A program made the position numbers and the translations under genes. Shown here piece after piece: positions 1 to 14,001 of a stretch of 32,000 bases of DNA. How positions within the stretch are numbered: the stretch's first letter is position 1; each line of letters opens with the position of its first letter. The stretch lies in the NCBI GenBank assembly GCA_027925225.1, contig AP027131.1, positions 510,001-542,000 on the forward strand, written 5' to 3'. Origin of the DNA: Candidatus Saccharimonadota bacterium (GTDB taxonomy: Bacteria > Bacillota_I > Bacilli_A > Mycoplasmatales > Hepatoplasmataceae). Below the pieces are notes generated by a model. It was not told the origin of the DNA. It searched no databases and saw only the letters and a program-made list of their open reading frames with translations.

Positions 1-108
1 AGTAATTACAACAAACTTATTTTTTGGAATCTTAACATTTATATTTTTAAGATTATTTTCTCTTGCATTAGAAACAGTAATAAAGTCTCTATTATCTTTA
101 TTTATCAT
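1..108 (-). CDS. uvrA: Excinuclease ABC subunit A, N-terminal end (partial, runs off left edge)
   Basis: Reverse translation from the ATG at 108-106 gives [36 protein letters not shown]. This matches the conserved UvrA N-terminus (I-x-V-x-x-AR-x-x-NLKNI-x-V-x-IP-K/R-x-x-F/L-VVIT) that lies just before the first Walker A. Confidence 0.75.
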
Positions 109-244
109 AGAAAAATTATAGTAAATATTAAATAAGAAAAATTAATATTTTTATTTTTAAAAAATTAATAAATAAAAAAAATATTATAATTTTTTGTATA
201 AAAGGGAATAAATATAAAAAAACAAAAGGTGAATCATAAATAAA

Positions 245-2008
245 ATGGAATCTAAAAATTTTTTAATACCAAAAGGTTTTTGTCAAGAATTAATTGTCGA
301 AGAAGATGACAATGAATTAAAAAATATAAGTCAAAAATTTATTAATATTTTAGATGAAGAAAACGAAAAATATATAGAAGAAAAAAATAAAAAGGAAAAT
401 GAATTTAAAGAATATATAAATGATAAAAATGCTAAAAATTACTTTTTTGAACCAGAAATATTATCTAGAAGATCTCCGCTTACAATTATAAATGCTCCTT
501 GAGGAAGCGGAAAAACTTTTTTTATTGAAAATTTAATTAAATTGGCAATAGACGAAAAAGAAAAAGGAATAGATTTTAAAAACTTTAAAAAAATAATTAT
601 TATTGATGCTTGAAAATATTCTAATTCAGAAAACATACCAGATGAAATAATGTCAGAATTATTTTCAATTTTTATTAAACTTTATCCAAAATATAAGGAA
701 ATATTTAAAAAAATTGCTTATAAAATTTTTAATACAGCTGCAATACCATGAGCAAAAAAAATAAATATTGATATAAACAAAATTGATATAGAAAGAAAAG
801 AAAATGAAAACATTATAGATTATTTTAAAAAAACAAGTATTGAAAAAACAATTGTTTTCTTTGATAATATTGAAAGAATTGGCAAAAAAAGTTGAGAAAT
901 TTTAAAAGCAATTTTCAAAATACAACAATTTGATAATTTTGTTTTTGTTTTACCAATGAACATTAAGGGATTTAAAAATAATGAAAAAAATAATTCAGAA
1001 TATCCAATTGAAAAATTTATTGATATAAAATATTTTGAATTTAAACAAAATTATTTATCTCTTATTAAGGGGATGGGTTTTCATGAAAAAGAAGTAAAAA
1101 TAATAAATAGTATTCTTGATACAGAAATAGATGGACAAAAATTATCTATAAGAGAAGTAAAACAAAGATTTATAGCTAATAATATATTAAATATTAAAAA
1201 TGAATACGAAAGACTTTATAAAATATTTAAAAATATTTGAGGTTCTTCTTTAATTTTAAAAGAAAAAATTAACAAAGTTTCTTTTGAAATATATACAAAA
1301 AAAAGAGAATTTAAAGAAGAGACTAATGAATTTTTTAATTTAATTTCTAAAGAAATAAATAAATTTGAATTAACTGAAAAAATAAGGGAAATAATTAATG
1401 AATTATGAAAAAATACAAAAATGGAAGAATTATTAAGAAAAAGTAAAAGAAATAATTTTATTCAAATTAATGATTATGATTATTTTAAAAATTTCTTAAC
1501 AGAAGCGGAGAAAAATTTAGAAATTTTTTTAAATGAAAACAATAAAAATATTAAAAAGGAAAAAAATAATTTAACTGAAAATGAAAATTTAATTGAAAAT
1601 TATAAATCAAATAAAAAAGAAAATAATGATAAGATAATTAATCTAAAAAAAGAAAATCCTATTAATCATAAGGAAGTAGTTATACTTGAAACTGTAAATA
1701 AAAAAAATGAAGATTCTATTTACTTACATAATAAAAAAATTATTGAAAACAATAAAAAAATTTCAGTGATTAAAAACGAAATTGAGAAAAGTGAATTTGA
1801 TTTATTATTAATTAAAGAAATTAAAAATAAATTTACTAATAAACTTAATTTATTAAAAGATAAAAAAGTGAATATTGATTTATTTATAAAAGAAAAAAAT
1901 GAAAATCTTTTAGAACTAAGTGAAAAATACGAATATAATTTTGAAAATAAAGAAGATATTAATAGATTTTCAGATTTTAATTTTAATAAGCTTAATGAAA
2001 TATTTTAA
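245..2008 (+). CDS. KAP-family P-loop NTPase with a long K/N/E-rich coiled-coil-like C-terminal half
   Basis: Track ORFs 245-502, 956-1240 and 1421-2008 share one frame and are separated only by TGA codons, giving a single 587-codon frame with no TAA/TAG. It has a Walker A INAPWGSGKTFF (W encoded by TGA at 500-502). This is followed by IIIIDAWKYS, which resembles the KAP FNAW-x-Y motif. A Walker B-like IVFFDNIER (857-877, compare DDLDR) and then FVFVLPMN complete the pattern. Confidence 0.75.
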
Positions 2009-2934
2009 TTAGGATTACTAACAAGTAAAGTAAAATTACCATTTAAATTTATTTCTAATAATTCATCATAAGTTAATATTAAACTCTCGTATTTTTTAAT
2101 ATTAATATTATTTATACTTCCTTCACCTTTAATATTAGTAACAATTAAAAAATTATGATCTTGATAATTTTTTAATATATCTTCTCCAGAAATTACTCAT
2201 TTTTCTAAATTAAAAATACTATTTCTTATTAAAGAAGAAATCTTAAGATTATTAGAAGAAAAAATATTTTTAATCTCACTTTTAACATCAATATTTAAAT
2301 TTAAAACATTTAAAGCTTTTTTTACATCTAAAGGTCTTTTTTGCTTATTATCATCTAATCTATCATAATCATAAAAACGATAAGTAATGTCAGAAGATTG
2401 TTGAACTTCATAAAGAAAAGTATTTCCTTTAATTGCATGTAAAGTACCTGGCAATATATTAAAAACATCTCCTTTTTTTATTTTATAAGTACTTAAAATA
2501 TCATTCCATTTATTTTCTTTAATTTTATTTTTTATTTCTAATTTATCTTTTATCTTTGTTCCGATAATAATTTCATTGTATTTATTTGTATCTAATATAT
2601 ATCAAGCCTCTGATTTACCATAAGGGTAATTTTCTAATTCTTTTGCTTGTTCATCATTTGGATGTACTTGAATAGATAAATCTTCCTTTGCATCTATAAG
2701 TTTTATTAAAAGAGGAAAATAATCACTTTTATAATTATTAAATAATGGTTTATTATTTATATAAAAATCATATAAATTTACATTTTTATTTAAAATTTTT
2801 GAAGAATTATTTTTATATCCAGAAACAATTCAAGCTTCTCCAATTGCTTTATTATTTTTAATATTAAAAAAACTTGATAATCTTTTACCACCTCATATTT
2901 TTTCTGAAAAAACTGGTTCAATTTTTAAAATCAT
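2005..2934 (-). CDS. manA: Mannose-6-phosphate isomerase, class I
   Basis: The N-terminus reads MILKIEPVFSEKIWGGKRLSSF. The internal stretch LPGTLHAIKGNTFLYEVQQSSDITYRFYDYDRLDDNKQKRPL matches the class I PMI signature region. The frame is continuous through TGA codons from 2934 to the TAA at 2007-2005. Its stop overlaps the stop of the convergent KAP gene. Confidence 0.85.
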
Positions 2935-3077
2935 ATTTCTTATACTTTCTTTCTTTTGATTAAAATTTTTTTATTTCTAATTTCTTTAAAATCATCAAAA
3001 AAATAATAACAATAAATATTATTATTTTTAGTATTTAATATAATTTAAATTAAAAAATACAAAATTAATATTTTATA

Positions 3078-3410
3078 TTATTCTAAATTATTTATATTTT
3101 CCTCTTTTTGATTTTTTGCAATAAATTCTTTATCTTGTAAATTAATATTGAATATTAAATTAAAAACATATTTTAAACTAGATAAAAATAAAAATATATC
3201 AATAAAAATTAAAGCAGCAAGAATTATTTTTGAATTTTTTAATTCAGTACTATAAATATCTCAATTACTATAAGAAGAATTCATATTGCTCAATTTTTCT
3301 TTAAGATCTTCAATATTATGGTTAACATTTATCATTAATGGAATAAATAATAAAAATAAACCAAAAAATAAAATACATAATAATACTTTTTTATATTTAA
3401 CTTTTTCCAA
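3078..3410 (-). CDS. Hypothetical small membrane protein (110 aa, two hydrophobic segments)
   Basis: A TTG start at 3410 lies 8 nt after AAGAGGTGA. The frame stays open to the TAA at 3080-3078 with one internal TGA. The translation starts MEKVKYKKVLLCILFFGLFLLFIPLMI and later contains KIILAALIFIDIFLFLSS. It is absent from the track because of the TGA. No homology recognised. Confidence 0.4.
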
Positions 3411-3546
3411 ATTTATCACCTCTTAATTTTTTCTCTAAATAAAAATTCATCATAAATTTTAATAAAAATAAAAAAAAATAAATAATCTTTTTAAAAATTA
3501 TTTTACAAAGTATTATAATGACTTTGATATTGAAGCTAATAGGATA

Positions 3547-5832
3547 ATGAAAAATAATATTGAAAAATTTGTTGTTAATTTAGAGAAAAATGATTTAACA
3601 CAAAATGATATTTTTCAAATGATTTCTAACAAATTGTTTGAAAAACAATACATTAAAAACAAAGACGGATTAATTTTAAAATTAAAAGAAAGAGAAGACA
3701 ATATAAGCACTGGTATAGGTCAAGGTATGGCTATACCACATGCTAGTTTTAACGAGCTTAAAGAACCAAAGGTTTTTATTTTTCGTTTAAAAAATAGTAT
3801 GAAATGAAAAAATTCATTAGACGGGAAAAAAGTAGATTTAATAATTTCTATTTTAGTTCCCAAAAATGAAAGGAATAAACATTTTGAAATTTTAACAAAA
3901 TTTTCTTCTAGTTTAACTATTGAGGAAAATATTGAAAAATTTAGAAAATTACCAAAAAAACAATTAATTTATTTTATTGATAATGAAATATTTAATTCAG
4001 AAGAAAAGAAAGATGAAATATTAGAAGAGAGAGAGAGAGAGAGAGAGAGAGATAATAAAAATATATTTATAGTAGGTGTAACAACTTGTCCAACAGGAAT
4101 AGCGCACACCTTTATGGCAGCCACTGCACTTGAAAAAGAAGCAAAAAGTCGTGGTTGAAAAGTAAAAATTGAAAAACAAGCACAAATAACAAAAGATAAA
4201 TTAACTGCACAGGAAATTAAAGATGCAGATTATGTAATCTTTGCTGCAGGAAAAGGAATTGAAGAAATAGAAAGATTCTATGGTAAAAAACTTTATGAAG
4301 TAGATGTTGCAAAACCGATTACAAAAGCAAAAGAAGTTTTAGATGATTTACTTAAAAAAGCAAAACCTTTTAATGTTGGTGCAAAAAATAGTGAAACAGA
4401 AATTAATTCATTAGATAAAGAAAAAAAAGGTTTTAGCCAAGGGCCAATAAGACATTTACTTACAGGTATTTCTTATATGATCCCATTTATTGCAATGGCA
4501 GGAATTGTTTTAGGAATTACTTCTGCTGCTGGATTTGATACAGGTTGAATTAATCCTGATACAGGTATTGTAGTTCCGGGTCCATATGATGTACATCCAG
4601 AGGGTTGAACAGAAGAATGGACATATGGATTTGCGCCAGTAAATAATGCCGCGATGGCAGTTAATACTGTCGCGGGCGATGCTTTTACATTATTTATTCC
4701 AGTTCTTGGAGGTTATATTGCTTATTCAATTGCAGGTAGACATGCCATAGCACCAGCTATGATTACATCATTCTACTTAAATGATACTTCGGGAACAGCA
4801 CTATGAAATTACCAAGAGGGTACATTTGGAAATTTTGGTAGTGATCATTTGGTATCGCTAGGATTTTTAGGAGCAATTGCTGCTGGTTATTTAATAGGTT
4901 ATTCAGTATCATGATGAACAAAAAAAACCAGCAAGATAAATAATGCAGCTTTTCAAGCTGTTAATCCCTTATTAATAATTCCAATTTTATTTACAATGAT
5001 TCCTTGATTTTTCTTTGCATTTATTGGTTATTTACCATTATATTGAATTGCATATGGTTTAGGAGAAGGAATTGATGCTCTGGTTGATGCAAATCTCCTT
5101 TGGATTGCAGGTGGAATAATGGGTATAATGATTTGCTTTGATTTAGGGGGGCCAGTGAACAAGATGGCGATGGTTATTGGAGTTGGCTATTTAGCAACAA
5201 ATAATTATTTCCCATTATTAAATGGTGTTTGTGCTGTCTGTGTTTCTATTCCTCCTCTGGTTTTATTTCTTGCTTGTTATCTTGGAAAATATCTTGGTTT
5301 TAGAATGAATGAAGAAGATAAAGCAATGGCTACAACAGCAGGTATAATGGGATTCTTTGGAATAACTGAAGGTTCAATTCCTTTTGCTGCAAAAGATCCT
5401 AAAAGATACATGCCCGCATTTATGTTTGCTGGTTTTATTGCTGGTATGTTAGCTATAGCTACTGGCGTAGGAAACAATGTTGCAATGTGAGGAGGCCCAA
5501 TCATTTATATTGCTGGAGGTATGGGTCATTCACCAGATCATGTTACAACTAGTGCTGAATTTATGCAAGCTGATTGAGGATATGCTGCATGATACTTTGT
5601 TCCTTTAATAATTGGTGGTTTTGCAGGATTATTCGCACTTGCTTTCTTAAATTGAATGTATACAAAATCAGAAAGAAAAGAAAATAAAAATACAGATGAA
5701 ATTCTTGATGAGAATACTTCAAAAGTAAAAAAATATAAAAATAAAGAAATTAAAAAAAATAAAGAAAAAGAATCTATAAATTATGCAATACATATTAAAA
5801 ATCAAACATATTTTAATTACGCAATAATTTAG
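3547..5832 (+). CDS. fruA: PTS fructose-family transporter, fused IIA-IIB-IIC
   Basis: One frame runs from 3547 to the TAG at 5830-5832 with many TGA codons. The IIA (type 2) region contains GIGQGMAIPHA. The IIB region contains [32 protein letters not shown]. The IIC region contains MICFDLGGPVNKMAM and multiple hydrophobic helices. Confidence 0.9.
4027..4052 (+). repeat. Perfect (GA)13 dinucleotide microsatellite inside fruA, in the IIA-IIB linker
   Basis: Read directly: gagagagagagagagagagagagaga, 26 nt. In frame it encodes ERERERER between the IIA and IIB domains. Confidence 0.95.
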
Positions 5833-5850
5833 TATATAAAGATTTTTTAT

Positions 5851-5890
5851 AAAATAAAGACTAATTAATTAGTCTTTATTTTTTTTATTT
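5851..5890 (+). terminator. Rho-independent terminator downstream of fruA (perfect palindrome plus T-run)
   Basis: The sequence aaaataaagactaatt / aattagtctttatttt forms a perfect 16+16 nt inverted repeat at 5851-5882. A T-run follows, and the site is about 20 nt after the fruA stop. Confidence 0.6.
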
Positions 5891-5988
5891 TTACAAAATA
5901 AAAATAGGATAATGCTTAAATTTTATTACTAAAGGGCTAAGTCATTTAAATTTAGTTTATTAGATTTTTTAAATCAAAATAAATAAAA

Positions 5989-6131
5989 TTATCCTTTTAA
6001 CTCAGTAATAATATCTCTTAATTTAATAGCCTTTTCAAAATAATGTTTTTAGCTGCAAGAGTCATTTCTTTTTCAAGAAATTTACCTTTTATATTTTTAT
6101 TTAAAGCTGAAATTTTTATATTATTTTATGC
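5989..6131 (-). pseudogene. Decayed duplicate of the uvrB 3' end (last ~47 codons, UVR domain)
   Basis: It aligns colinearly and in the same orientation with 7381-7524, at roughly 85% identity by eye. A 1-nt deletion near 6045-6047 and a CAA-to-TAA change break the frame. The relic reads [23 protein letters not shown]...[15 protein letters not shown], against [41 protein letters not shown] in the intact gene. Confidence 0.8.
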
Positions 6132-6254
6132 TTTTTTATTATTAATTAAATAAAAAAAATATTTACATTTTTAAAAACCTTTTTATAAAAAAAAAAAATT
6201 AATTTTATATAAATTTATATTTCAAATTTTTACAAATATATTATAAAATTAGTT

Positions 6255-6319
6255 TAGGATGGTACTTAGGGATCATCAACAAGGGGTTAGTTCTTATGCA
6301 TCTAGCCCTTTTGCATTTT
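6255..6319 (+). ncRNA. Candidate small structured RNA or terminator-like element (unclassified)
   Basis: This is a local GC-rich patch (taggatggtacttagggatcatcaacaaggggttagttcttatgcatctagccctt) in otherwise almost pure A+T intergenic DNA. A hairpin pairs AAGGGGTTAG (6281-6290) with CTAGCCCTT (6302-6310), with one bulge and an 11-nt loop. It is followed by ttgcatttt on the plus strand only. I recognised no known RNA family. Confidence 0.25.
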
Positions 6320-6342
6320 AAGAACTTATAAAAAGCAAATAT

Positions 6343-7275
6343 TTAATTGTAATTTAAAAATTTAGAAAAATATTTTTTTAAATAATTAAATTTTTTTACA
6401 GATTTTGAATTTTCAAGTAAATTTTTGATATCAAAAATAAGTTTTCTAGCAATTTTATTTCTCAAAAAATCTTCTTGCTTATTTAAGTAATTAAACAAAG
6501 TATCGACTTTTTCTTTTTCCATTATTAAGTCACTTAAATGAGAAATAGCATTTCTATATTTTCTTGTGCTTTGTATTCTTTCAATAAAAATATTATTAAA
6601 AATCTTTTCATCTTTTTCTTTATTTGATAAATCTTTTTTATAAATTATTTTTCTAAGCTGATTTAATTTATGTTTATGAATAAAATTATAATTTGATAAT
6701 TCGTCTAAATTTATAAAGTTTTCATTTCATAATAATTTTAAAGTTTCTATTTTTTCGCAAAAAGAAAATTTATGAATTATTTTTGAAACATCTATTAAAT
6801 TATTTTTATCAAATATATTTTTTATTTTTTTGATATCAATCTTTTCTAAAATATAATTAAAATCTTTTTCAAAAAACATTACTTTCATATACAAAAATTT
6901 CTCAAGATAATATTCAAATGAAAAAACATAAGGGTATAATAAATTACTTAATTCTCTTTGTATTTTTTTCAAATCATTTAATAACGAATTCATATTTTTA
7001 ATAAAAATATTTTTGTTATTTTTTGAAAAATATAAAATCAATGGTCTAAATGATTTATAAAAATTTTCTAATAAATAAATATCTATTTTCCCGTTTTTTA
7101 TTGAATCATTAAAAAATGCAAATTTATTAAATTCACTTAGATTTCTATTTTTATCATAAATATAATTAAAATCAATTATTTTATTTCTAGTTAAAAAATT
7201 AATAATATTTTTATCAAATAAATTATTTTTTTTAAGCATATTTGATGCGTTAGTAAAAATTTTATCTGTTTTCAT
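6343..7275 (-). CDS. Hypothetical protein with Rx4H HEPN-type motif, Abi2 (AbiD/AbiF)-like candidate
   Basis: Track ORF 6727-7275 continues through the TGA at 6729-6727 to the TAA at 6345-6343, giving 310 aa. The C-terminal third contains IQSTRKYRNAISHLSDLI, and its RNAISH codons span 6555-6538. The motif and the protein length resemble the Abi_2 family consensus (l-RN-x-x-A/S-H). No other domain recognised. Confidence 0.5.
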
Positions 7276-7380
7276 AATACAATATTTTTTATTAAATGTT
7301 TAAAATTACAAAATCAAAAAAATTATATAAAAAATAATAAATTTTACTTGTAAAAATTAAAAATATAAATTTCAATAAAA

Positions 7381-9324
7381 TTAACCTTTTAATTCAGTAA
7401 TCATATCTCTTAATTTAATAGCTTTTTCAAAATCATACTTTTTAGCAGCAAGAGTCATTTCTTTTTCAAGCATTTTGATTTTATCTTTTTTATTTAAAGC
7501 CGAAATTTTTACATCTTTTTGTGCTAATTCTTCTATTAAAGGTTCTGGTATTTTTTTGATTATAGTTCGAGGAGTAATATTATTTGCTTTATTAAAAGCT
7601 AATTGAATTTCTCTTCTTCTTTCAGTTTCTCTTATTGCTTCTTTCATTGATTTAGTAAAATTAGTAGCGTAAAAAATAACATGACCATTTACATTTCTAG
7701 CAACTCTCCCTATCATTTGAATAAGCGATCTAGTATTTCTTAAAAATCCTTCTTTATCTGCTTCCAATACTGCAAGAAGGGAAACTTCTGGAACATCTAT
7801 CCCTTCTTTTAATAAGTTAATTCCTACAATCCCATCATAAAAACCAATTCTTAATTTTCTTAATACTTCTTCCCTTTGAAATGTTTTAAGTTCACTATGG
7901 AGATAAGCAATTGAAAAGCCTTTTTTTGTAAGAAATGAAGCAATATCCTCGGCTAGTTTTTTTGTTGTAGTATTTATAAAAACTCTCTCATTTCTATCTT
8001 TTCTTATTTGAATTTCTTTTATTAAATCATTTATTTGATTTTCTTCTTTTCTTATTTCAATAGTTGGATCAATAAGCCCTGTAGGTCTAATAATTTGTTC
8101 TACTACCTTATGATTTGCTTTTCCAAGTTCATAATCCCCTGGAGTTGCAGAAGTATAAATAACTTTATTCATTACTTTCTCAAATTCAGGAAATCTTAAT
8201 GGTCTGTTATCTAAAGCAGTTGGAAGTCTAAAACCATATTTTACAAGTGATTCTTTTCTTGACTTATCTCCTTCGTACATTCCTCTAATTTGTGGAATAG
8301 ACATATGTGACTCATCAACTATTAAAAGAAAATCTTTTGGAAAATATGAAAAAAGGGTAGCAGGAGGTTCTCCTGATTTTCTCCATGGCTCAAAATAAAT
8401 TGAATAATTTTCAATTCCAGAAGTCATCCCAAATTCTTCAAATTGTTCTATATCAAAATTTACTTTATTTTCAAGTCTTTGTTTTTCAAGACGTAAATCT
8501 TCTTTTTCAAAATAACTTAATCTTTCTTTTAAATCTTTTTTAATATTTTTAACAGCATTAGCCAATAAAGATTGAGAAAAAACATTGGGATTTGCAGGTG
8601 TAATTGTAAAACTTTTATAAAACTTTAATACATCTTTGTTAAGAGAATCAATTTCTACAATTTCTTCTATAACATCATCAAAAGTATCAATCCTTAAATT
8701 AAATTGATCAGTTCAAGAAGGAGCAAGCTCAATCAAATCACCATTTACAATAAAATTACCAGGAGAAAGATCTGATGATCTTTTATATCCTAGTTTTATT
8801 AATTTATGTAAAAATTCATTTTTATTAATTTTTTGTTTTAATGAAATTTCAAAATGATGTTTTTTATATTCATCAGGAGAACGATGACCATAAATAGAAG
8901 CAACAGAAGAAACAACAATTACATCATTTCTAGAAGTAAGTGCATTAAGTGCTGAATTACGCATCATTTCAATTTGTCAATTTTGTACAGATTGTTTTTC
9001 AATATAAGTATCAGTTTTAGGAAGATATGCTTCTGGTTGATAAAAATCAAAATTTGAAATATAATATTCAACTCTATTATTGGGAAATAAATCTTTTAAT
9101 TCTATAAATAATTGATTAGCAAGAGTTTTATTGTGTGCCATTACAAGGGTTGGTCTTTTATATTTTTCAATAACATTAGCCATTGTAAAAGTTTTCCCAG
9201 TTCCAGTTGCTCCCAAAAGAACAATATGGTCTTTACTTTTTAATTGCTCTAAAATTTCTTTTATTGCTCTTGGTTGATCACCTGATGGAATTTTATCGGT
9301 AATTAACTCAAAATTTCTTTCCAT
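7381..9324 (-). CDS. uvrB: Excinuclease ABC subunit B
   Basis: Three track ORFs (8977-9324, 8713-8967, 7381-8565) share one frame and are joined by TGA codons. The sequence contains [17 protein letters not shown] (Walker A), DESH, helicase motifs and the C-terminal UVR domain. Total 647 aa. Confidence 0.95.
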
Positions 9325-9325
9325 T

Positions 9326-9619
9326 TTATTTATCTTTTTCTTCTTTTTTATTATTATCTATTTTATTATTACTTTTTTTATCTTTTTTCGATTTATCAAT
9401 AGTATGATTTTTCTTTTCGTAAAATGTAATTCTATTAAATTTAATATCTGTAAAAAATAATAAAATAATAATAATTAATACAATAACTGCAATGGTATAA
9501 AAAAGAATTGCTAATGATTTTACTCCAGTAATTTGCCCCACTATTGCAATAATTATTATTATTAATAATATAAAAATTAATTTAGTTGTTCCATTTGTAT
9601 TTGTTCAAAGTTTTCTCAT
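9326..9619 (-). CDS. Hypothetical small membrane protein (97 aa) immediately upstream of uvrB
   Basis: The ATG at 9619-9617 gives MRKLW (W = TGA), and the frame then joins track ORF 9326-9541. There are two hydrophobic segments and a lysine-rich tail. Its TAA (9328-9326) lies 1 nt before the uvrB ATG. Confidence 0.6.
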
Positions 9620-9666
9620 TATTAAATTTTATTTTTTTGGTATTTAAATAATAGCATTTAAAATAA

Positions 9667-9933
9667 CTAAATTAAAATAAGAATAATTACAAGAATTACA
9701 ATTAAAATTAAAAAAAATATTGAAAAATAAATTATTAATTTTTTAATATTAAAATTATTAACTTTTTCAGAATACTTACTTTTAAAAGTATTAGTATATT
9801 CTTGTTTTAATAAACCTTCTTTATCAGTTGAAAATAGTTTTAAATTTAAAGACCCAGATAATTCATTTTTTTTATTTGAATTTGAGAAACTTATTTTCTC
9901 ATTATCTTCAAAAAAAACCTCTCTCTTTTTTTT
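9667..9933 (-). pseudogene. Out-of-frame C-terminal segment of the Ser/Thr kinase (juxtamembrane region plus terminal TM helix)
   Basis: This frame opens at the A10 tract (9935-9926 on the coding strand). It reads KKREVFFEDNEKISFSNSNKKNELSGSLNLKLF...KKLIIYFSIFFLILIVILVIILILI and ends at the TAG at 9669-9667. One extra A in the tract would fuse it to the kinase frame. Confidence 0.5.
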
Positions 9934-10802
9934 TTATCTTTTCTAATAATTGGTTTTATTTTTACCATTCTTCCTTCAATTTTATTTATATATCTATTTA
10001 ATATTTCTATTGCGGCTTCTGAATTTCTATATCTATTAATATAATCCTTTTCAATCATTTTCATTACAATAAGTTCTAATTCTAAATCAATATCAGGATT
10101 AAGTCTAGAAATTCTTTCTGGTTCTTTTAAAAGAATTTGCCTTGCTGTATCTTCATGATTTACACCATAAAAAGGAACTACACCAGTTAACATTTTATAC
10201 ATTAAAACCCCCACTGAAAATATTTCAGAAGATGGAGTGGCTTTTTCACCCTTAAATATTTCTGGAGCAAGATATTGAATTGTTCCTATTATGCTTGCTT
10301 GTTTTGTTAAATCTTGACTAGTTGAAGCTTGTACAATTCCAAAATCCATTAGTTTTATTTTATTTTCAAGATTTAAAACAATATTTGCAGGTTTTAAGTC
10401 TCTATGCATTATTCCTTGTGCATGAATTTTTTTTAATGCTTCAAAAATTTGTATTGAATATTTTACAGTATCTTTATTAGAAATAAAATTTCTTTCTTCT
10501 ATAAGCTTATCTATTGTTTTTCCTCTTACATATTCCATTACAAGAATTCTACGATCATCAAAATTAAAAAAATCATATGTTTCTACAATATTTGGGTGAT
10601 TTAATGATAAAAGTGTTTCTGCTTCAAGTTTAAATCTTTTATCCATATTAGAAAACTCTTCATTTTCGTTTTGAACTTTTAAAGCAACATTTCTATTATT
10701 TTTTAAATCTTCTGCAAGATAAACAACAGCGGAAGCGCCTTTCCCAAGAACTCTATCGATTTTATATTGATCTTTTATTAATTTACCTTTACTTCAATTC
10801 AT
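9891..10802 (-). CDS. prkC: Ser/Thr protein kinase (PrkC/PknB-like), kinase domain as currently in frame
   Basis: The ATG at 10802 gives MNWSKGKLIKDQYKIDRVLGKGASAVVYLAED, which includes the glycine-rich loop. HRDLKPANIVL, DFGI and APE motifs follow. The frame ends at the TAA at 9893-9891, shortly after an A10 tract. Confidence 0.9.
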
Positions 10803-11523
10803 AATTTACTAAAATACAAGTCATATTATCTACAGATTTATTTTTTTCAGCTGTTTCTATTATTTTTTTTGTTTTCTCCTCAATTGTTGTCTTTTTTTTT
10901 AGTATTTTATTATATTCTTCATCTTTTAAATAATTATGTACACCATCAGAGGTTATTATTATGTACCCTTTTTTGTCTAACAAAGTAACATAAATATCAA
11001 CCTTAGAATCTCTTCTTGGACCCAAAGCAGATGTAAGATAATTTGTGAAATTTGAATACTTCTTAAATGCATCATTTTTTTTTGCAAGTTGAGCAAGATT
11101 ATGATCCTCCGAAATTTGAAAATGATGATTTTTTTCTCAAAGTGTTGCTCTGCTGTCTCCTATATTTATCGTAAATAATTTGTTTCCATAAAAAATATTT
11201 AAATTTAAGGTAGTTCCCATATCAAAACTTAAATCTCTTTTTTCAACTTCTTCATTTAAAAAAGATTGAATATCTTTCATATAAGTAATTAAAAGATTTT
11301 GAATTTCAACATCACTTAAATTATTAAAATCAATATTATAAAATATTTTTTTAACAAGTTCAATAGTCATTTTAGAAGCTAATTTTCCATCTAAATGACC
11401 ACCCATTCCATCAGCCACTGCTGCTACAATATATTTATTTTTTGTGTCAAAAATTATAAAATCATCTTGATTTTCATTTCTTATACCTTGCCTCGTAAGA
11501 CCTGCATATTTATATCTAATCAT
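10789..11523 (-). CDS. prpC: PP2C-family Ser/Thr protein phosphatase
   Basis: Track ORFs 11137-11523 and 10789-11025 share one frame and are joined across TGA. The sequence contains RNENQDDF, VADGMGGH and the C-terminal DNMTCILV. Its end overlaps the kinase start by 14 nt. Confidence 0.9.
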
Positions 11524-11545
11524 TTTTAAATCATATCAATTATAT

Positions 11546-12058
11546 TTATTTTTTAGTTTCTTCTATAATATTTCTATTTTCTATCGATTTATTACTAATA
11601 TTATTAATTTCATTAAAATCATCTAAAGAAAATTTTAAATTATTATAAATATCTTCTTTAATATTATTGTTAATTTTGTCATTAATAAGATGTTCATTTT
11701 CTTTCAAAAGTAAATCTTCTTTCATTAAAGATAAAACATGAGTTAATGTTTTATCCTGTTTTTTTAATATTTCTTCTATATTTTTTGTAGTTTCCTCTAA
11801 ATTTATTGAAATTTTTTTTGATTCAGTTATATTTATTTTTAATTTTTTTGTTGTTTCATTAGATTCTTTTCAAATAAAAATTGTAAGAAAAAATGCAATA
11901 AAAGTAAAAAAAGAAGAAATTATAGTAAAAATATTAGTAAAAATTATAGTAATTGGAATTAAAAAAGCAATAATTATTAAAAATAAAAAAAACAACCAAA
12001 ATAATGAAGAGTGTTTATTTTTTTCTTTTATATTTAAAACTTTTTCATGAAATTTCAT
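11546..12058 (-). CDS. Hypothetical membrane protein with coiled-coil-like C-terminal region (170 aa)
   Basis: Track ORF 11870-12058 continues through TGA to the TAA at 11548-11546. An N-terminal hydrophobic block (LFWLFFLFLIIIAFLIPITIIFTNIF...) is followed by a polar K/E/N-rich region. No homology recognised. Confidence 0.6.
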
Positions 12059-12065
12059 GTATTTA

Positions 12066-12830
12066 TTATTCTAAATAAAATGGTAAATTTTTTTGAAAAT
12101 AAGTTATTATGTCTTTTTTATCAATTGGAACTCATAATTTTGAAGAATCTCAATTTTTACTTCATGGTAATGTTTTGTGACTTTCTTGTATTAATATTTC
12201 TAAAGAAAATTTTTTTAATGTTAAATAACACTTTTCTAAAATGCTTTTTGTATTTTTGTCAATACTATCAAAATCTATTTGAATGGGATCATCCATTGTT
12301 AAATAATTGTAATGACTAGTAATTGGTCCATTTTCAAAAGCATATCATTTTATATTTTCTTCATTTAAAAAAAAATTATCACTTACAATTTTATTAATTT
12401 CATTTTTTGAAATGTCTTTCATTGAGTAAAAATTATTTCTTAATTTTTGATTAATATAAATAAAACCAGCAAACATAAAATAAAGAATTTTATATTTTCA
12501 CATTTTATTTATTAATAAATTCTCAGGAAGAAAGAAATTATAAATTTTTTCAAGTTCATTTAATCAATTTCCTAAATTTAATATATTTTTTTCAATTGAA
12601 TTTATTTCTAAATTCTCTATCTTTTCTATTTTTAAATTATTTATTTTTTTAATTTCATCTCTACTTTTATTTAAGTAATTTTTAATTTCATTAATGTATA
12701 TTTCATAATCAATAGATAAATATTTACTTTTCTCATTAATAAAATTTTTTATTTTTTTTTCATATTTTCTATTCAATTCTTTTATTTCAATTGTTTTTAA
12801 TCAATATAAAAAGTCTTCATTTTTTCTCAT
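12066..12830 (-). CDS. Hypothetical protein (254 aa)
   Basis: The ATG at 12830 gives MRKNEDFLYW. The frame contains track ORF 12564-12776 and continues through several TGA codons to the TAA at 12068-12066. A 765-nt frame free of TAA/TAG in DNA this AT-rich argues for coding. No domain recognised. Confidence 0.6.
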
Positions 12831-12931
12831 GTTCTTTTTTTAAAAAGTATTAATTTTATATTTATTTTCTCATTTTATCAAGAAAATTATATATCCTTAA
12901 TATCTAAAAAAATTTAAAAAAAATGTTTTTT

Positions 12932-13519
12932 TTATTTATTGTTTTTTTTATTTATTTCTTTTGAAATAATTTTTTCTATTTTTTTTATTGTATTTTCTAA
13001 ATTGCCATTTATAACTTTATATTTATATTCATAGGCCATTTCAATCTCTTCTTTTGCTCTTTTTATTCTTCTATCAATTAATTCTTCTTCTTCTGTTTTT
13101 CTTTTTTCTAATCTTATTCTAAGTTCTCTTAAATTAGGGGGTTTTATAAAAATAGAAACAACATCTTTTGGAGGGAATTTTTTCATTATTATTAAAGCTC
13201 CTATTGTTTCAATTTCAAGAATTACATTTTTGCCTTTTATTAAATTTTCTTCTACATATTTTTTTTCAGTTCCATAATAGTTTGTTGTAAATCTTGCTCA
13301 CTCTAAGAATTTTTCTCTTTTAATTCTTTTTTCAAATTCTTTTTCATTTATAAAATAATAATCTTTCCCATTTATTTCGTTTTTTCTTGGTTTTCTTGTT
13401 GTTGTTGAAATTGAATAAATAAGATTAAGATTATCATTTTTAAGCAATTCTTTTATTATTGTTCCTTTTCCTACACCCGAAGGTCCAGAAATAAGAATTA
13501 TTCTTCCCCTTGTGTCCAT
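12932..13519 (-). CDS. gmk: Guanylate kinase
   Basis: ILISGPSGVGKGT is the P-loop. The join across TGA reads FLEWARFTTNYYGT. Track ORFs 13298-13519 and 12932-13186 share the frame. Confidence 0.9.
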
Positions 13520-14001
13520 ATTTTCTTAATATCTGTAAGAACTGAATTTGGAACAAGTCCTTCAATAGATTTTTTTGTTTTTAAATAATGTCTTACTAAA
13601 GTAGATGAAATATCTTCAACTCCTTGAAAGCTAAAATAATGAAATGTTAAATCAGGATTTAATTCTAGATATTCATCAGCAATTCTTGATTCGTATTCTG
13701 AAAGATGATGATCTTTGCTTACATTTCCTCTGATAATTACATTAACACCTTTTTCTTTTGCAAAAACTGGTGTTTTTTCATCTTTTTTTTGCATAAAAAC
13801 CGTTACATTAGAAAGACTTAAACTACTCACTGCTTTTTTTACAATAAAATATCTCATTTTTAAATCAGCAATATGATTTTTATATTCGTTATTTGCAACA
13901 TAAATATAAACTTCATCATAACTTCTTGAAGCTAATAAGATTACTTTAATATGTCCATTATGAATTGGATCAAAGGATCCTGGAAAAATTGCTTTGCTCA
14001 T
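13498..14001 (-). CDS. coaD: Phosphopantetheine adenylyltransferase
   Basis: MSKAIFPGSFDPIHNGHIKVI carries the T/HxGH nucleotidyltransferase motif. At 167 aa it has typical CoaD length. It overlaps the gmk start. Confidence 0.9.
   Translation of the reverse strand: MSKAIFPGSFDPIHNGHIKVILLASRSYDEVYIYVANNEYKNHIADLKMRYFIVKKAVSSLSLSNVTVFMQKKDEKTPVFAKEKGVNVIIRGNVSKDHHLSEYESRIADEYLELNPDLTFHYFSFQGVEDISSTLVRHYLKTKKSIEGLVPNSVLTDIKKIWTQGEE

Follow-up and report, generated by a model that had tools for sequence, protein, structure and literature searches.

A Hepatoplasma-restricted protein family with an invariant RNxISH motif and a possible HEPN-type function

The HEPN superfamily consists of metal-independent Rx4-6H ribonucleases (RNases) with a composite dimer site and a four-helix up-down bundle. 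A survey of these proteins places the motif where helix 3 ends and the next loop starts, notes a polar residue (usually N) after the R and an acidic residue in helix 2, and records frequent inserts between helices 2 and 3 (PMC3710099). The AbiD/F systems combine a HEPN protein with an upstream non-coding RNA (ncRNA) that carries the abiF motif RF03085 (PMC13064643, PMC12373285). One of them, C. difficile AbiF, is an R-phi-xxxH HEPN RNase with the ncRNA RCd22 whose toxicity is abolished by mutation of R or H, and the PbAbiF-ncRNA complex is available as structure 8vz6 (PMC12373285). Here we analyse a gene that a preliminary description had presented as the orphan, Abi2/AbiD-AbiF-like cargo of a repeat-bounded islet. 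The gene, open reading frame (ORF) 310, lies in a stretch of 32,000 nucleotides (nt; contig AP027131.1 of assembly GCA_027925225.1, positions 510,001 to 542,000), which we refer to as the window. We find that ORF310 belongs to a conserved family of Hepatoplasma proteins with an invariant RNxISH motif, and that it is not a recognisable Abi2/AbiD-AbiF protein. The gene and the features discussed below are as follows.

6343–7275, minus strand: ORF310, 310 amino acids (aa), predicted all-alpha (table-4 translation, NCBI match, homologues and AlphaFold2 model)
6538–6555, minus strand: R241-N-A-I-S-H246, the RNxISH(L) motif, a candidate HEPN-type catalytic site; invariant and placed at a helix end
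6640–6768, minus strand: residues 170–212, three short helices in the model (172–184, 190–195 and 201–211) with a helix-turn-helix (HTH)-like pattern
6727–6729, minus strand: TGA codon of W183, genetic code 4
6913–6915, minus strand: codon of E121, candidate counterpart of the HEPN helix-2 acidic residue, in helix 88–134

Read with translation table 4, positions 7275 to 6343 of the minus strand form a single intact frame of 310 aa, as the preliminary description had stated. The lone in-frame TGA (6729–6727) encodes W183, and the corresponding alignment column holds W in most homologues. Under table 11 the frame is broken into pieces of 182 and 59 aa, and the adjoining uvrB is broken into three by TGA codons; genetic code 4 is in use in the window, the GC content of which is 15–33%. 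The ORF310 product is 100% identical to the NCBI entry 'hypothetical protein HPAVJP_4350' from a metagenome-assembled genome of Candidatus Hepatoplasma vulgare, a mollicute of isopod midgut glands. Between ORF310 and its orthologue at L001, the locus of a close relative, dN/dS is 0.57; the neighbouring KAP NTPase has a value of 0.56, PMI 0.37 and the PTS permease 0.14. HPAVJP_4350 is therefore a real coding gene, under weak purifying selection and evolving as fast as its KAP neighbour.

HMMER, run exhaustively over 1.84 billion representative proteins, returned seven family proteins, the query and six relatives, and a word-indexed homology search added P0002, an orthologue with 55% identity. 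Every one of the eight members is a singleton, and all come from Hepatoplasma: H. vulgare contributes HPAVJP_4350 (the query) and HPAVJP_4950, H. scabrum HPPSJP_4700 and HPPSJP_1980, H. crinochetorum HCTKY_3730, and three Logan assemblies one member each. They are typically about 310–360 aa long, show 29–56% identity to the query, and fall into at least two paralogue lineages. Further profile searches with the full and the C-terminal alignments added no members outside Hepatoplasma, and a tblastn search of 72,556 plasmids gave no match. Thus the family is restricted to Hepatoplasma; it was previously undescribed. The term 'orphan' needs to be narrowed accordingly: seven other Hepatoplasma proteins belong with ORF310, and nothing from outside the genus does among the 1.84 billion proteins.

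Two members depart from the common form. HPPSJP_1980 (174 aa) corresponds to the C-terminal part of a family gene (L018, about 7435–8525) that carries a frameshift; the N-terminal half can be read just upstream in another frame, and the gene represents either a pseudogene or an assembly error. In P0003 (L016, 5151–6659; 502 aa) the HTH-like segment and the beginning of the motif helix are partially duplicated within the protein, and the first of the duplicate copies has no RNxISH motif.

The motif RNAISH is encoded at 6555–6538 of the minus strand, within KYRNAISHLSDL (6561–6526). In a single sequence such a motif is not evidence, because random permutations of the ORF310 protein contain Rx4-6H in 33% of cases and R[NDH]xxxH in 2.6%. 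Across the family, R241-N242-x-I244-S245-H246-L247 is invariant in all eight members, the variable position giving RN[ANKS]ISH, and the motif is the best-conserved block of the alignment. Fifteen columns are invariant in all eight sequences, six of them R241, N242, I244, S245, H246 and L247, and 10 more are invariant in the seven sequences that have the N-terminal half. R241 is the sole invariant Arg and H246 the sole invariant His, in proteins that each contain two to five His residues; E121 is the sole invariant acidic residue. Read from the sequence, hydrophobic I244, L247 and L250 alternate with R241, N242, S245 and H246, an arrangement in which the polar residues would share one exposed helix face. 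The Rx4H-type RNxxSH motif to which the preliminary description had drawn attention is clearly conserved among all homologues.

The placement of the motif in predicted structures is compatible with the helix-3 position of HEPN proteins. An AlphaFold2 model of ORF310 (P0001), built from the eight-sequence alignment, is all-alpha (pLDDT 82, pTM 0.78). In it the motif closes helix 218–244 and opens a loop, 245–253, that leads to helix 254–270. The model of a divergent paralogue, P0006 (pLDDT 73), gives the same picture, with a helix at 239–264, the motif at 261–266 and then a loop; in both models the helix that the motif ends is about 26 residues long. E121 lies within the long helix 88–134 of the P0001 model, and an insert of short helices (139–211), including the HTH-like stretch, separates this helix from the motif helix. 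Residues 170–212 include the conserved F172, K175, L193, F198 and I199. Weak matches of single members to HTH_24 and NrtR_WHD (E = 0.06–0.5) fall in this segment, and we regard its HTH-like character as a hint and not a finding.

Our best, though tentative, reading of these observations is that the ORF310 family is a new, genus-restricted HEPN-type family, for which RNA cleavage is the chemistry we infer; we consider this possible while holding it short of probable. The reading draws on the motif, on where that motif sits in the models and on a single conserved Glu, and not on detectable homology or a fold match. Like HEPN proteins, the family has an invariant R-N-x-x-x-H with a polar residue after the R, an all-alpha architecture in which the motif ends a long helix and opens a loop (in the predicted models), one invariant acidic residue in an upstream long helix, and a short-helix insert between the acidic-residue helix and the motif helix. 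If the likeness is meaningful, the RNxISHL patch would be a HEPN-type Rx4H site and the functional centre of the protein, and ORF310 would be a metal-independent endoribonuclease. A homodimer would bring two copies of the motif together, E121 in the preceding long helix would serve as the auxiliary acidic residue, and the HTH-like insert (170–212) may help to bind nucleic acid. The HEPN fold, the dimerization, the RNase chemistry and any toxic or defensive role are thus putative properties of ORF310.

Several results weigh against this reading. Searches of Pfam, NCBIfam and PADLOC gave no significant match to a HEPN family for any of the eight members. Across these libraries and PHROGs, with all members and their C-terminal halves as queries, there were only scattered single-member matches at E > 0.008 (including RBFA, HTH_24 and DUF1493), and no profile of a HEPN, Abi or defence family was among them even at E ≤ 10. 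A sequence-profile search of the PDB gave nothing relevant. Foldseek comparison of the two models with the PDB and BFVD found no HEPN structure and nothing below E = 1.7, and against the PDB there was nothing below E = 2. With the tools available, therefore, neither profile nor structural similarity to any HEPN or Abi2 family is seen. The family also lacks the Ex3[KR] form typical of the HEPN helix-2 acidic residue, which in HEPN proteins lies close to the Rx4-6H motif in space; E121 has no K or R at +4. An alignment of the family with Abi_2 proteins by hhalign (described below) reaches only E = 0.29–0.31, with a probability of 0.2%. One H. scabrum paralogue is frameshifted, which indicates that the family is dispensable, and no protein partner, antitoxin-like or otherwise, is conserved across the loci compared. 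Finally, the family alignment is shallow (eight sequences, Neff 2.4), which makes both the models and the negative results soft. Because HEPN-fold proteins include the MtlR-like PTS regulators and a PTS gene adjoins the locus, we also considered this identity and rejected it, as there is no PF05068 match and no PTS gene at the loci of the H. scabrum type.

The genomic setting of ORF310 is a repeat-bounded islet within the interval between uvrB and uvrA. Followed along the minus strand, the locus comprises uvrB (9357–7381), ORF310, a GC-rich non-coding element, the decayed remnant of a duplicated uvrB 3' end (6132–5948), PTS EIIABC, PMI, the KAP NTPase and uvrA. The window starts with the 5' end of uvrA (1–135), which is 91% identical to the uvrA start at L001. 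Features outside ORF310 that bear on the organization of the locus are listed here.

7340–7525, minus strand: 3' end of the live uvrB (last 47 or so codons, stop at 7381–7383) with about 40 nt of downstream sequence; upstream repeat copy
5948–6132, minus strand: decayed duplicate of the uvrB 3' end with a frameshifting 1-nt deletion, beside the terminator of the PTS gene; downstream repeat copy
245–2008, plus strand: KAP-family P-loop NTPase (PF07693, E = 1.8e-12)
L002 8582–8803: 74-aa protein with two predicted transmembrane (TM) helices
L016 6801–7025: 74-aa two-TM protein
L017 2398–2622: 74-aa two-TM protein

The direct repeats at 5948–6132 and 7340–7525 are 185 nt long, 78–83% identical and 1392–1393 nt apart, far beyond chance, and they substantiate the repeat-bounded islet of the preliminary description. 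The uvrB remnant is nearer to the uvrB of its own genome than to that of H. scabrum or L017. This, together with the structure of the repeat, indicates that a 1.39-kb unit containing ORF310 either entered at the end of uvrB or was duplicated along with it. Candidate routes are insertion, by a single crossover, of a circle that carried a uvrB end, homology-facilitated illegitimate recombination, and tandem duplication followed by deletions. A weak c-di-GMP-I match within the uvrB remnant (6048–6096, minus strand; 18.3 bits against a gathering threshold of 35, E = 1.4) is almost certainly due to chance.

Comparison of the window (1–7400) with L001 (1–7420) shows that the gene occupies different positions in close relatives. 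L001 has the same PTS-PMI-KAP block, but its homologue flanks the opposite end of it, where it separates KAP from uvrA; at that site the window is precisely without a homologue. As the genes lie on opposite sides of the block, the gene has moved within the uvrB–uvrA interval. We considered whether the L001 copy is likewise bounded by a duplicated piece of a host gene (39 nt of the uvrA start), but rejected this as unproven, since 9 of 100 shuffles gave a repeat of the same quality. A third arrangement, seen in H. scabrum and two Logan assemblies, has the homologue between uvrA and uvrB, encoded on the opposite strand, and lacks both KAP and PTS genes. In total, five of the eight members, from five genomes, are located between uvrB and uvrA (group 1). 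The three group-2 paralogues are found elsewhere, one of them after a ribosomal-protein operon in H. crinochetorum and another after a PP2C-kinase pair in H. scabrum; the third is HPAVJP_4950 of H. vulgare. The uvrB–uvrA interval is thus variable and rearranged between close relatives.

The neighbours of the gene vary as well. The KAP NTPase, which has a long coiled-coil-like tail rich in K, N and E, lies divergently next to the L001 homologue and is absent from scabrum-type loci. A search of the flanks for a small protein antitoxin was unsuccessful because the short ORFs are not conserved between the window and L001. The absence of a recognisable partner protein, as first described, therefore holds across loci. 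Scabrum-type genomes have a conserved 74-aa protein with two predicted TM helices (80–96% identity) between the family gene and uvrB; neither the window nor L001 has this protein. In H. scabrum a cluster of gmk, a PP2C phosphatase gene and a Ser/Thr kinase gene is followed by the group-2 paralogue (L018, 5049–8525), and in the window a small TM protein, then uvrB and ORF310, come after the gmk/PP2C/kinase cluster (9326–13525); the gene preceding uvrB in H. scabrum is metK. Family genes thus seem to mark the breakpoints of rearrangements.

This organization has a described parallel in the integron-cassette HEPN proteins (PDB 3jrt family, PMC3710099), which are likewise encoded in small, single-gene, repeat-bounded units found at differing positions in related genomes. 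Unlike these cassettes, the ORF310 locus has no integrase, attI or attC, and the repeat that bounds it arose by duplication of part of the host's uvrB.

Group-1 genes are accompanied by a GC-rich non-coding element, which in the window begins about 12 nt past the ORF310 stop codon.

6250–6330, minus strand: GC-rich two-hairpin non-coding element, about 80 nt, about 45% GC in surroundings of about 15% GC
L001 6190–6245: copy of the element beside a group-1 gene
L016 6665–6720: related element beside a group-1 gene
L017 2188–2245: related element beside a group-1 gene
L002 8430–8480: related, degenerate element beside a group-1 gene

Hairpin 1 of the element pairs GGGCTAG (6308–6302) with CTAACCC (6290–6284), and hairpin 2 has the form GATG...CATC (6277–6258). 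The element contains the 14-mer CTAACCCCTTGTTG, which occurs nowhere else in the window (0.01 occurrences expected) and is found again at L001 6213–6226. By eye in the alignment, hairpin 2 retains its pairing through two double changes (GAUG/CAUC versus GGUA/UACC). Related hairpins follow the genes in L016 and L017, and a degenerate one follows in L002. The element is downstream of the gene in four of the five group-1 loci and upstream only in L001, where it lies about 70 nt from the ORF and ends in a terminator-like hairpin with a U-run. When the elements, with that of the group-2 locus L015 among them, were folded and compared with shuffled sequences, L001 (z = −3.5) and L015 (z = −5.3) were clearly more stable than expected and L016 was marginal (−2.0); the others were not clearly better than their shuffles. 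RNAalifold found no consensus structure for the element, it matches no Rfam family, and a scan for promoter and terminator consensus sequences was uninformative in this AT-rich DNA.

Group-2 genes are followed instead by two copies of a 15–23-nt motif at a spacing of 39–41 nt. In H. scabrum (L018 8513–8576) the 23-nt sequence TTCACACAACTAAATGTGCTACA occurs twice without mismatch at a spacing of 41 nt, its first copy overlapping the stop codon. The H. crinochetorum motif (L015 9101–9154) is 15 nt long and likewise occurs twice, at a spacing of 39 nt. A small CACA/UGUG hairpin can form in each copy.

The presence of a conserved structured or repeated non-coding element beside a candidate RNase gene, and of a duplicated 15–23-nt motif beside the group-2 paralogues, resembles the organization of type III toxin-antitoxin systems such as ToxIN and AbiF-ncRNA. 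The differences are that the element is 3' of the gene in most loci, that the repeats number only two, and that a plain terminator role is equally likely for this putative RNA. By default we read the element as a plain terminator or 3' untranslated region, and its action as an RNA antitoxin is a speculative lead.

We compared the family directly with Abi_2 proteins. Plasmids searched with a consensus peptide yielded 270 matching records, all of those listed being annotated 'Abi family protein', from which twelve diverse proteins were picked and aligned. As a positive control, all 12 match PF07751, with a best E value of 2.5e-60. None of the eight Hepatoplasma proteins matches PF07751 at E ≤ 10, either at full length or as the C-terminal half. 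The hhalign alignment of the two sets covers only 18–21 columns, which place the RN..H stretches of both sets in exact register. When a greedy path is forced, it runs colinearly and matches E121 to Abi_2 E98, itself invariant, but its posteriors are near zero and it is not significant. Scored with an Abi_2 hidden Markov model (HMM; hmmsearch --max), the eight proteins give between −14.5 and 1.0 bits, scores that 1600 shuffles also span. Structure 8vz6 was present in the PDB copy searched and was not among the Foldseek matches of either model, with the caveat of Foldseek sensitivity. The abiF RNA motif RF03085 was absent from 5800–7600 at E ≤ 10 and from L001, L016 and L017 at E ≤ 1, and no Rfam family matched the window at its gathering threshold.

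ORF310 does share with Abi_2/AbiD-AbiF its form as a single protein of about 300 aa with RNxx[A/S]H about two thirds of the way along, a similar spacing between the conserved Glu and the motif (120 residues in the Hepatoplasma family and 115 in Abi_2), and an adjoining structured non-coding element. It differs in the motif itself, which is RNxISHLxNLI where Abi_2 has RNxCAHHxRLWN, so that the HH/RLW continuation is missing; in failing the PF07751, hhalign, HMM and Foldseek tests; in having no abiF RNA motif; in the downstream position of the flanking element at most loci; and in its location at a syntenic site of the chromosome, between uvrB and uvrA, rather than on a plasmid, in a prophage or beside restriction-modification genes. 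Since these tests are all negative, the defining features of Abi_2 proteins that could be tested are not found beyond a loose motif and size, and the Abi2/AbiD-AbiF assignment of the preliminary description is not supported. The role in abortive infection or phage defence that came with it has nothing to tie it to ORF310: PADLOC finds no family for any of the eight members or for the neighbouring KAP NTPase, there is no recognised defence gene in the neighbourhood, and the Hepatoplasma genome paper lists only restriction-modification and CRISPR as defence and states that the genomes encode no toxins (PMC10928387). A defensive role is thus unsupported by context.

Other explanations have to be weighed against a HEPN-type RNase. 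ORF310 could be a non-catalytic, alpha-helical nucleic-acid-binding or regulatory protein in which RNxISHL and the HTH-like insert bind DNA or RNA, perhaps acting at uvrB–uvrA. The location of five of the eight members between these genes, the HTH-like segment with its weak HTH_24 and NrtR_WHD matches, the want of an antitoxin partner (which fits a non-toxic protein) and the failure to match a HEPN fold are all in keeping with such a role. Yet the HTH matches are non-significant and confined to single members, the group-2 paralogues at two loci are not near uvr genes, and the orientation relative to uvrA and uvrB varies among genomes. Moreover, invariant R, N, S and H that would lie on one helix face, together with an invariant Glu, are more typical of a catalytic site, and we regard a purely binding function as somewhat unlikely. 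The HEPN likeness could also be a coincidence in a lineage-specific protein with an unrelated role, for example in host interaction or as a structural protein of the symbiont, as might be suspected of a fast-evolving family limited to one genus of isopod symbionts, with no detectable homology or fold match and a motif class (Rx4-6H) that a third of shuffles contain. This we judge unlikely, given that no signal peptide or transmembrane segment is visible in the sequence, that the motif is the most conserved block and its R[NDH]xxxH form is rare in shuffles, and that in the predicted models it is placed exactly as in HEPN proteins.

The remaining alternatives would make ORF310 a toxin. In one, it would be an extremely diverged Abi2/AbiD-AbiF HEPN toxin, held in check by an ncRNA in the manner of type III systems and acting in abortive-infection phage defence. 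The resemblance of RNxISH to the RNxxAH(H) of Abi_2, the similar length and Glu-to-motif spacing, the colinear greedy alignment and the GC-rich element beside the gene speak for this, as does the upstream hairpin with a U-run at L001, which recalls the AbiF ncRNA layout (PMC12373285, PMC13064643). Set against these are the lack of a PF07751 or PADLOC match for any member, the hhalign E value of 0.3, Abi_2 HMM scores no better than those of shuffles, the failure of either model to match PbAbiF (8vz6), the absence of RF03085 even at E ≤ 10 and the downstream position of the element in four of five loci, which together make the proposal highly improbable. An AbiF-ncRNA analogue assembled from unrelated parts is also very unlikely in our estimation: here a HEPN-type RNase toxin would be kept by the adjoining structured RNA, and the two would make up a unit of about 1.2–1.4 kb that relocates within the uvrB–uvrA interval of a 0.66-Mb genome, has no recognisable recombinase and leaves duplicated host-gene ends behind.

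If the HEPN-type reading is wrong, ORF310 would be an ordinary lineage-specific hypothetical protein. If it is right, the Mollicutes would contain a HEPN family that is invisible to current profile libraries, and a symbiont with a reduced genome would be keeping a candidate RNase as two paralogues that evolve fast. With its relocated gene and flanking RNA element, the locus is a small and tractable example of a gene that has moved although no enzyme of a mobile element is visible.

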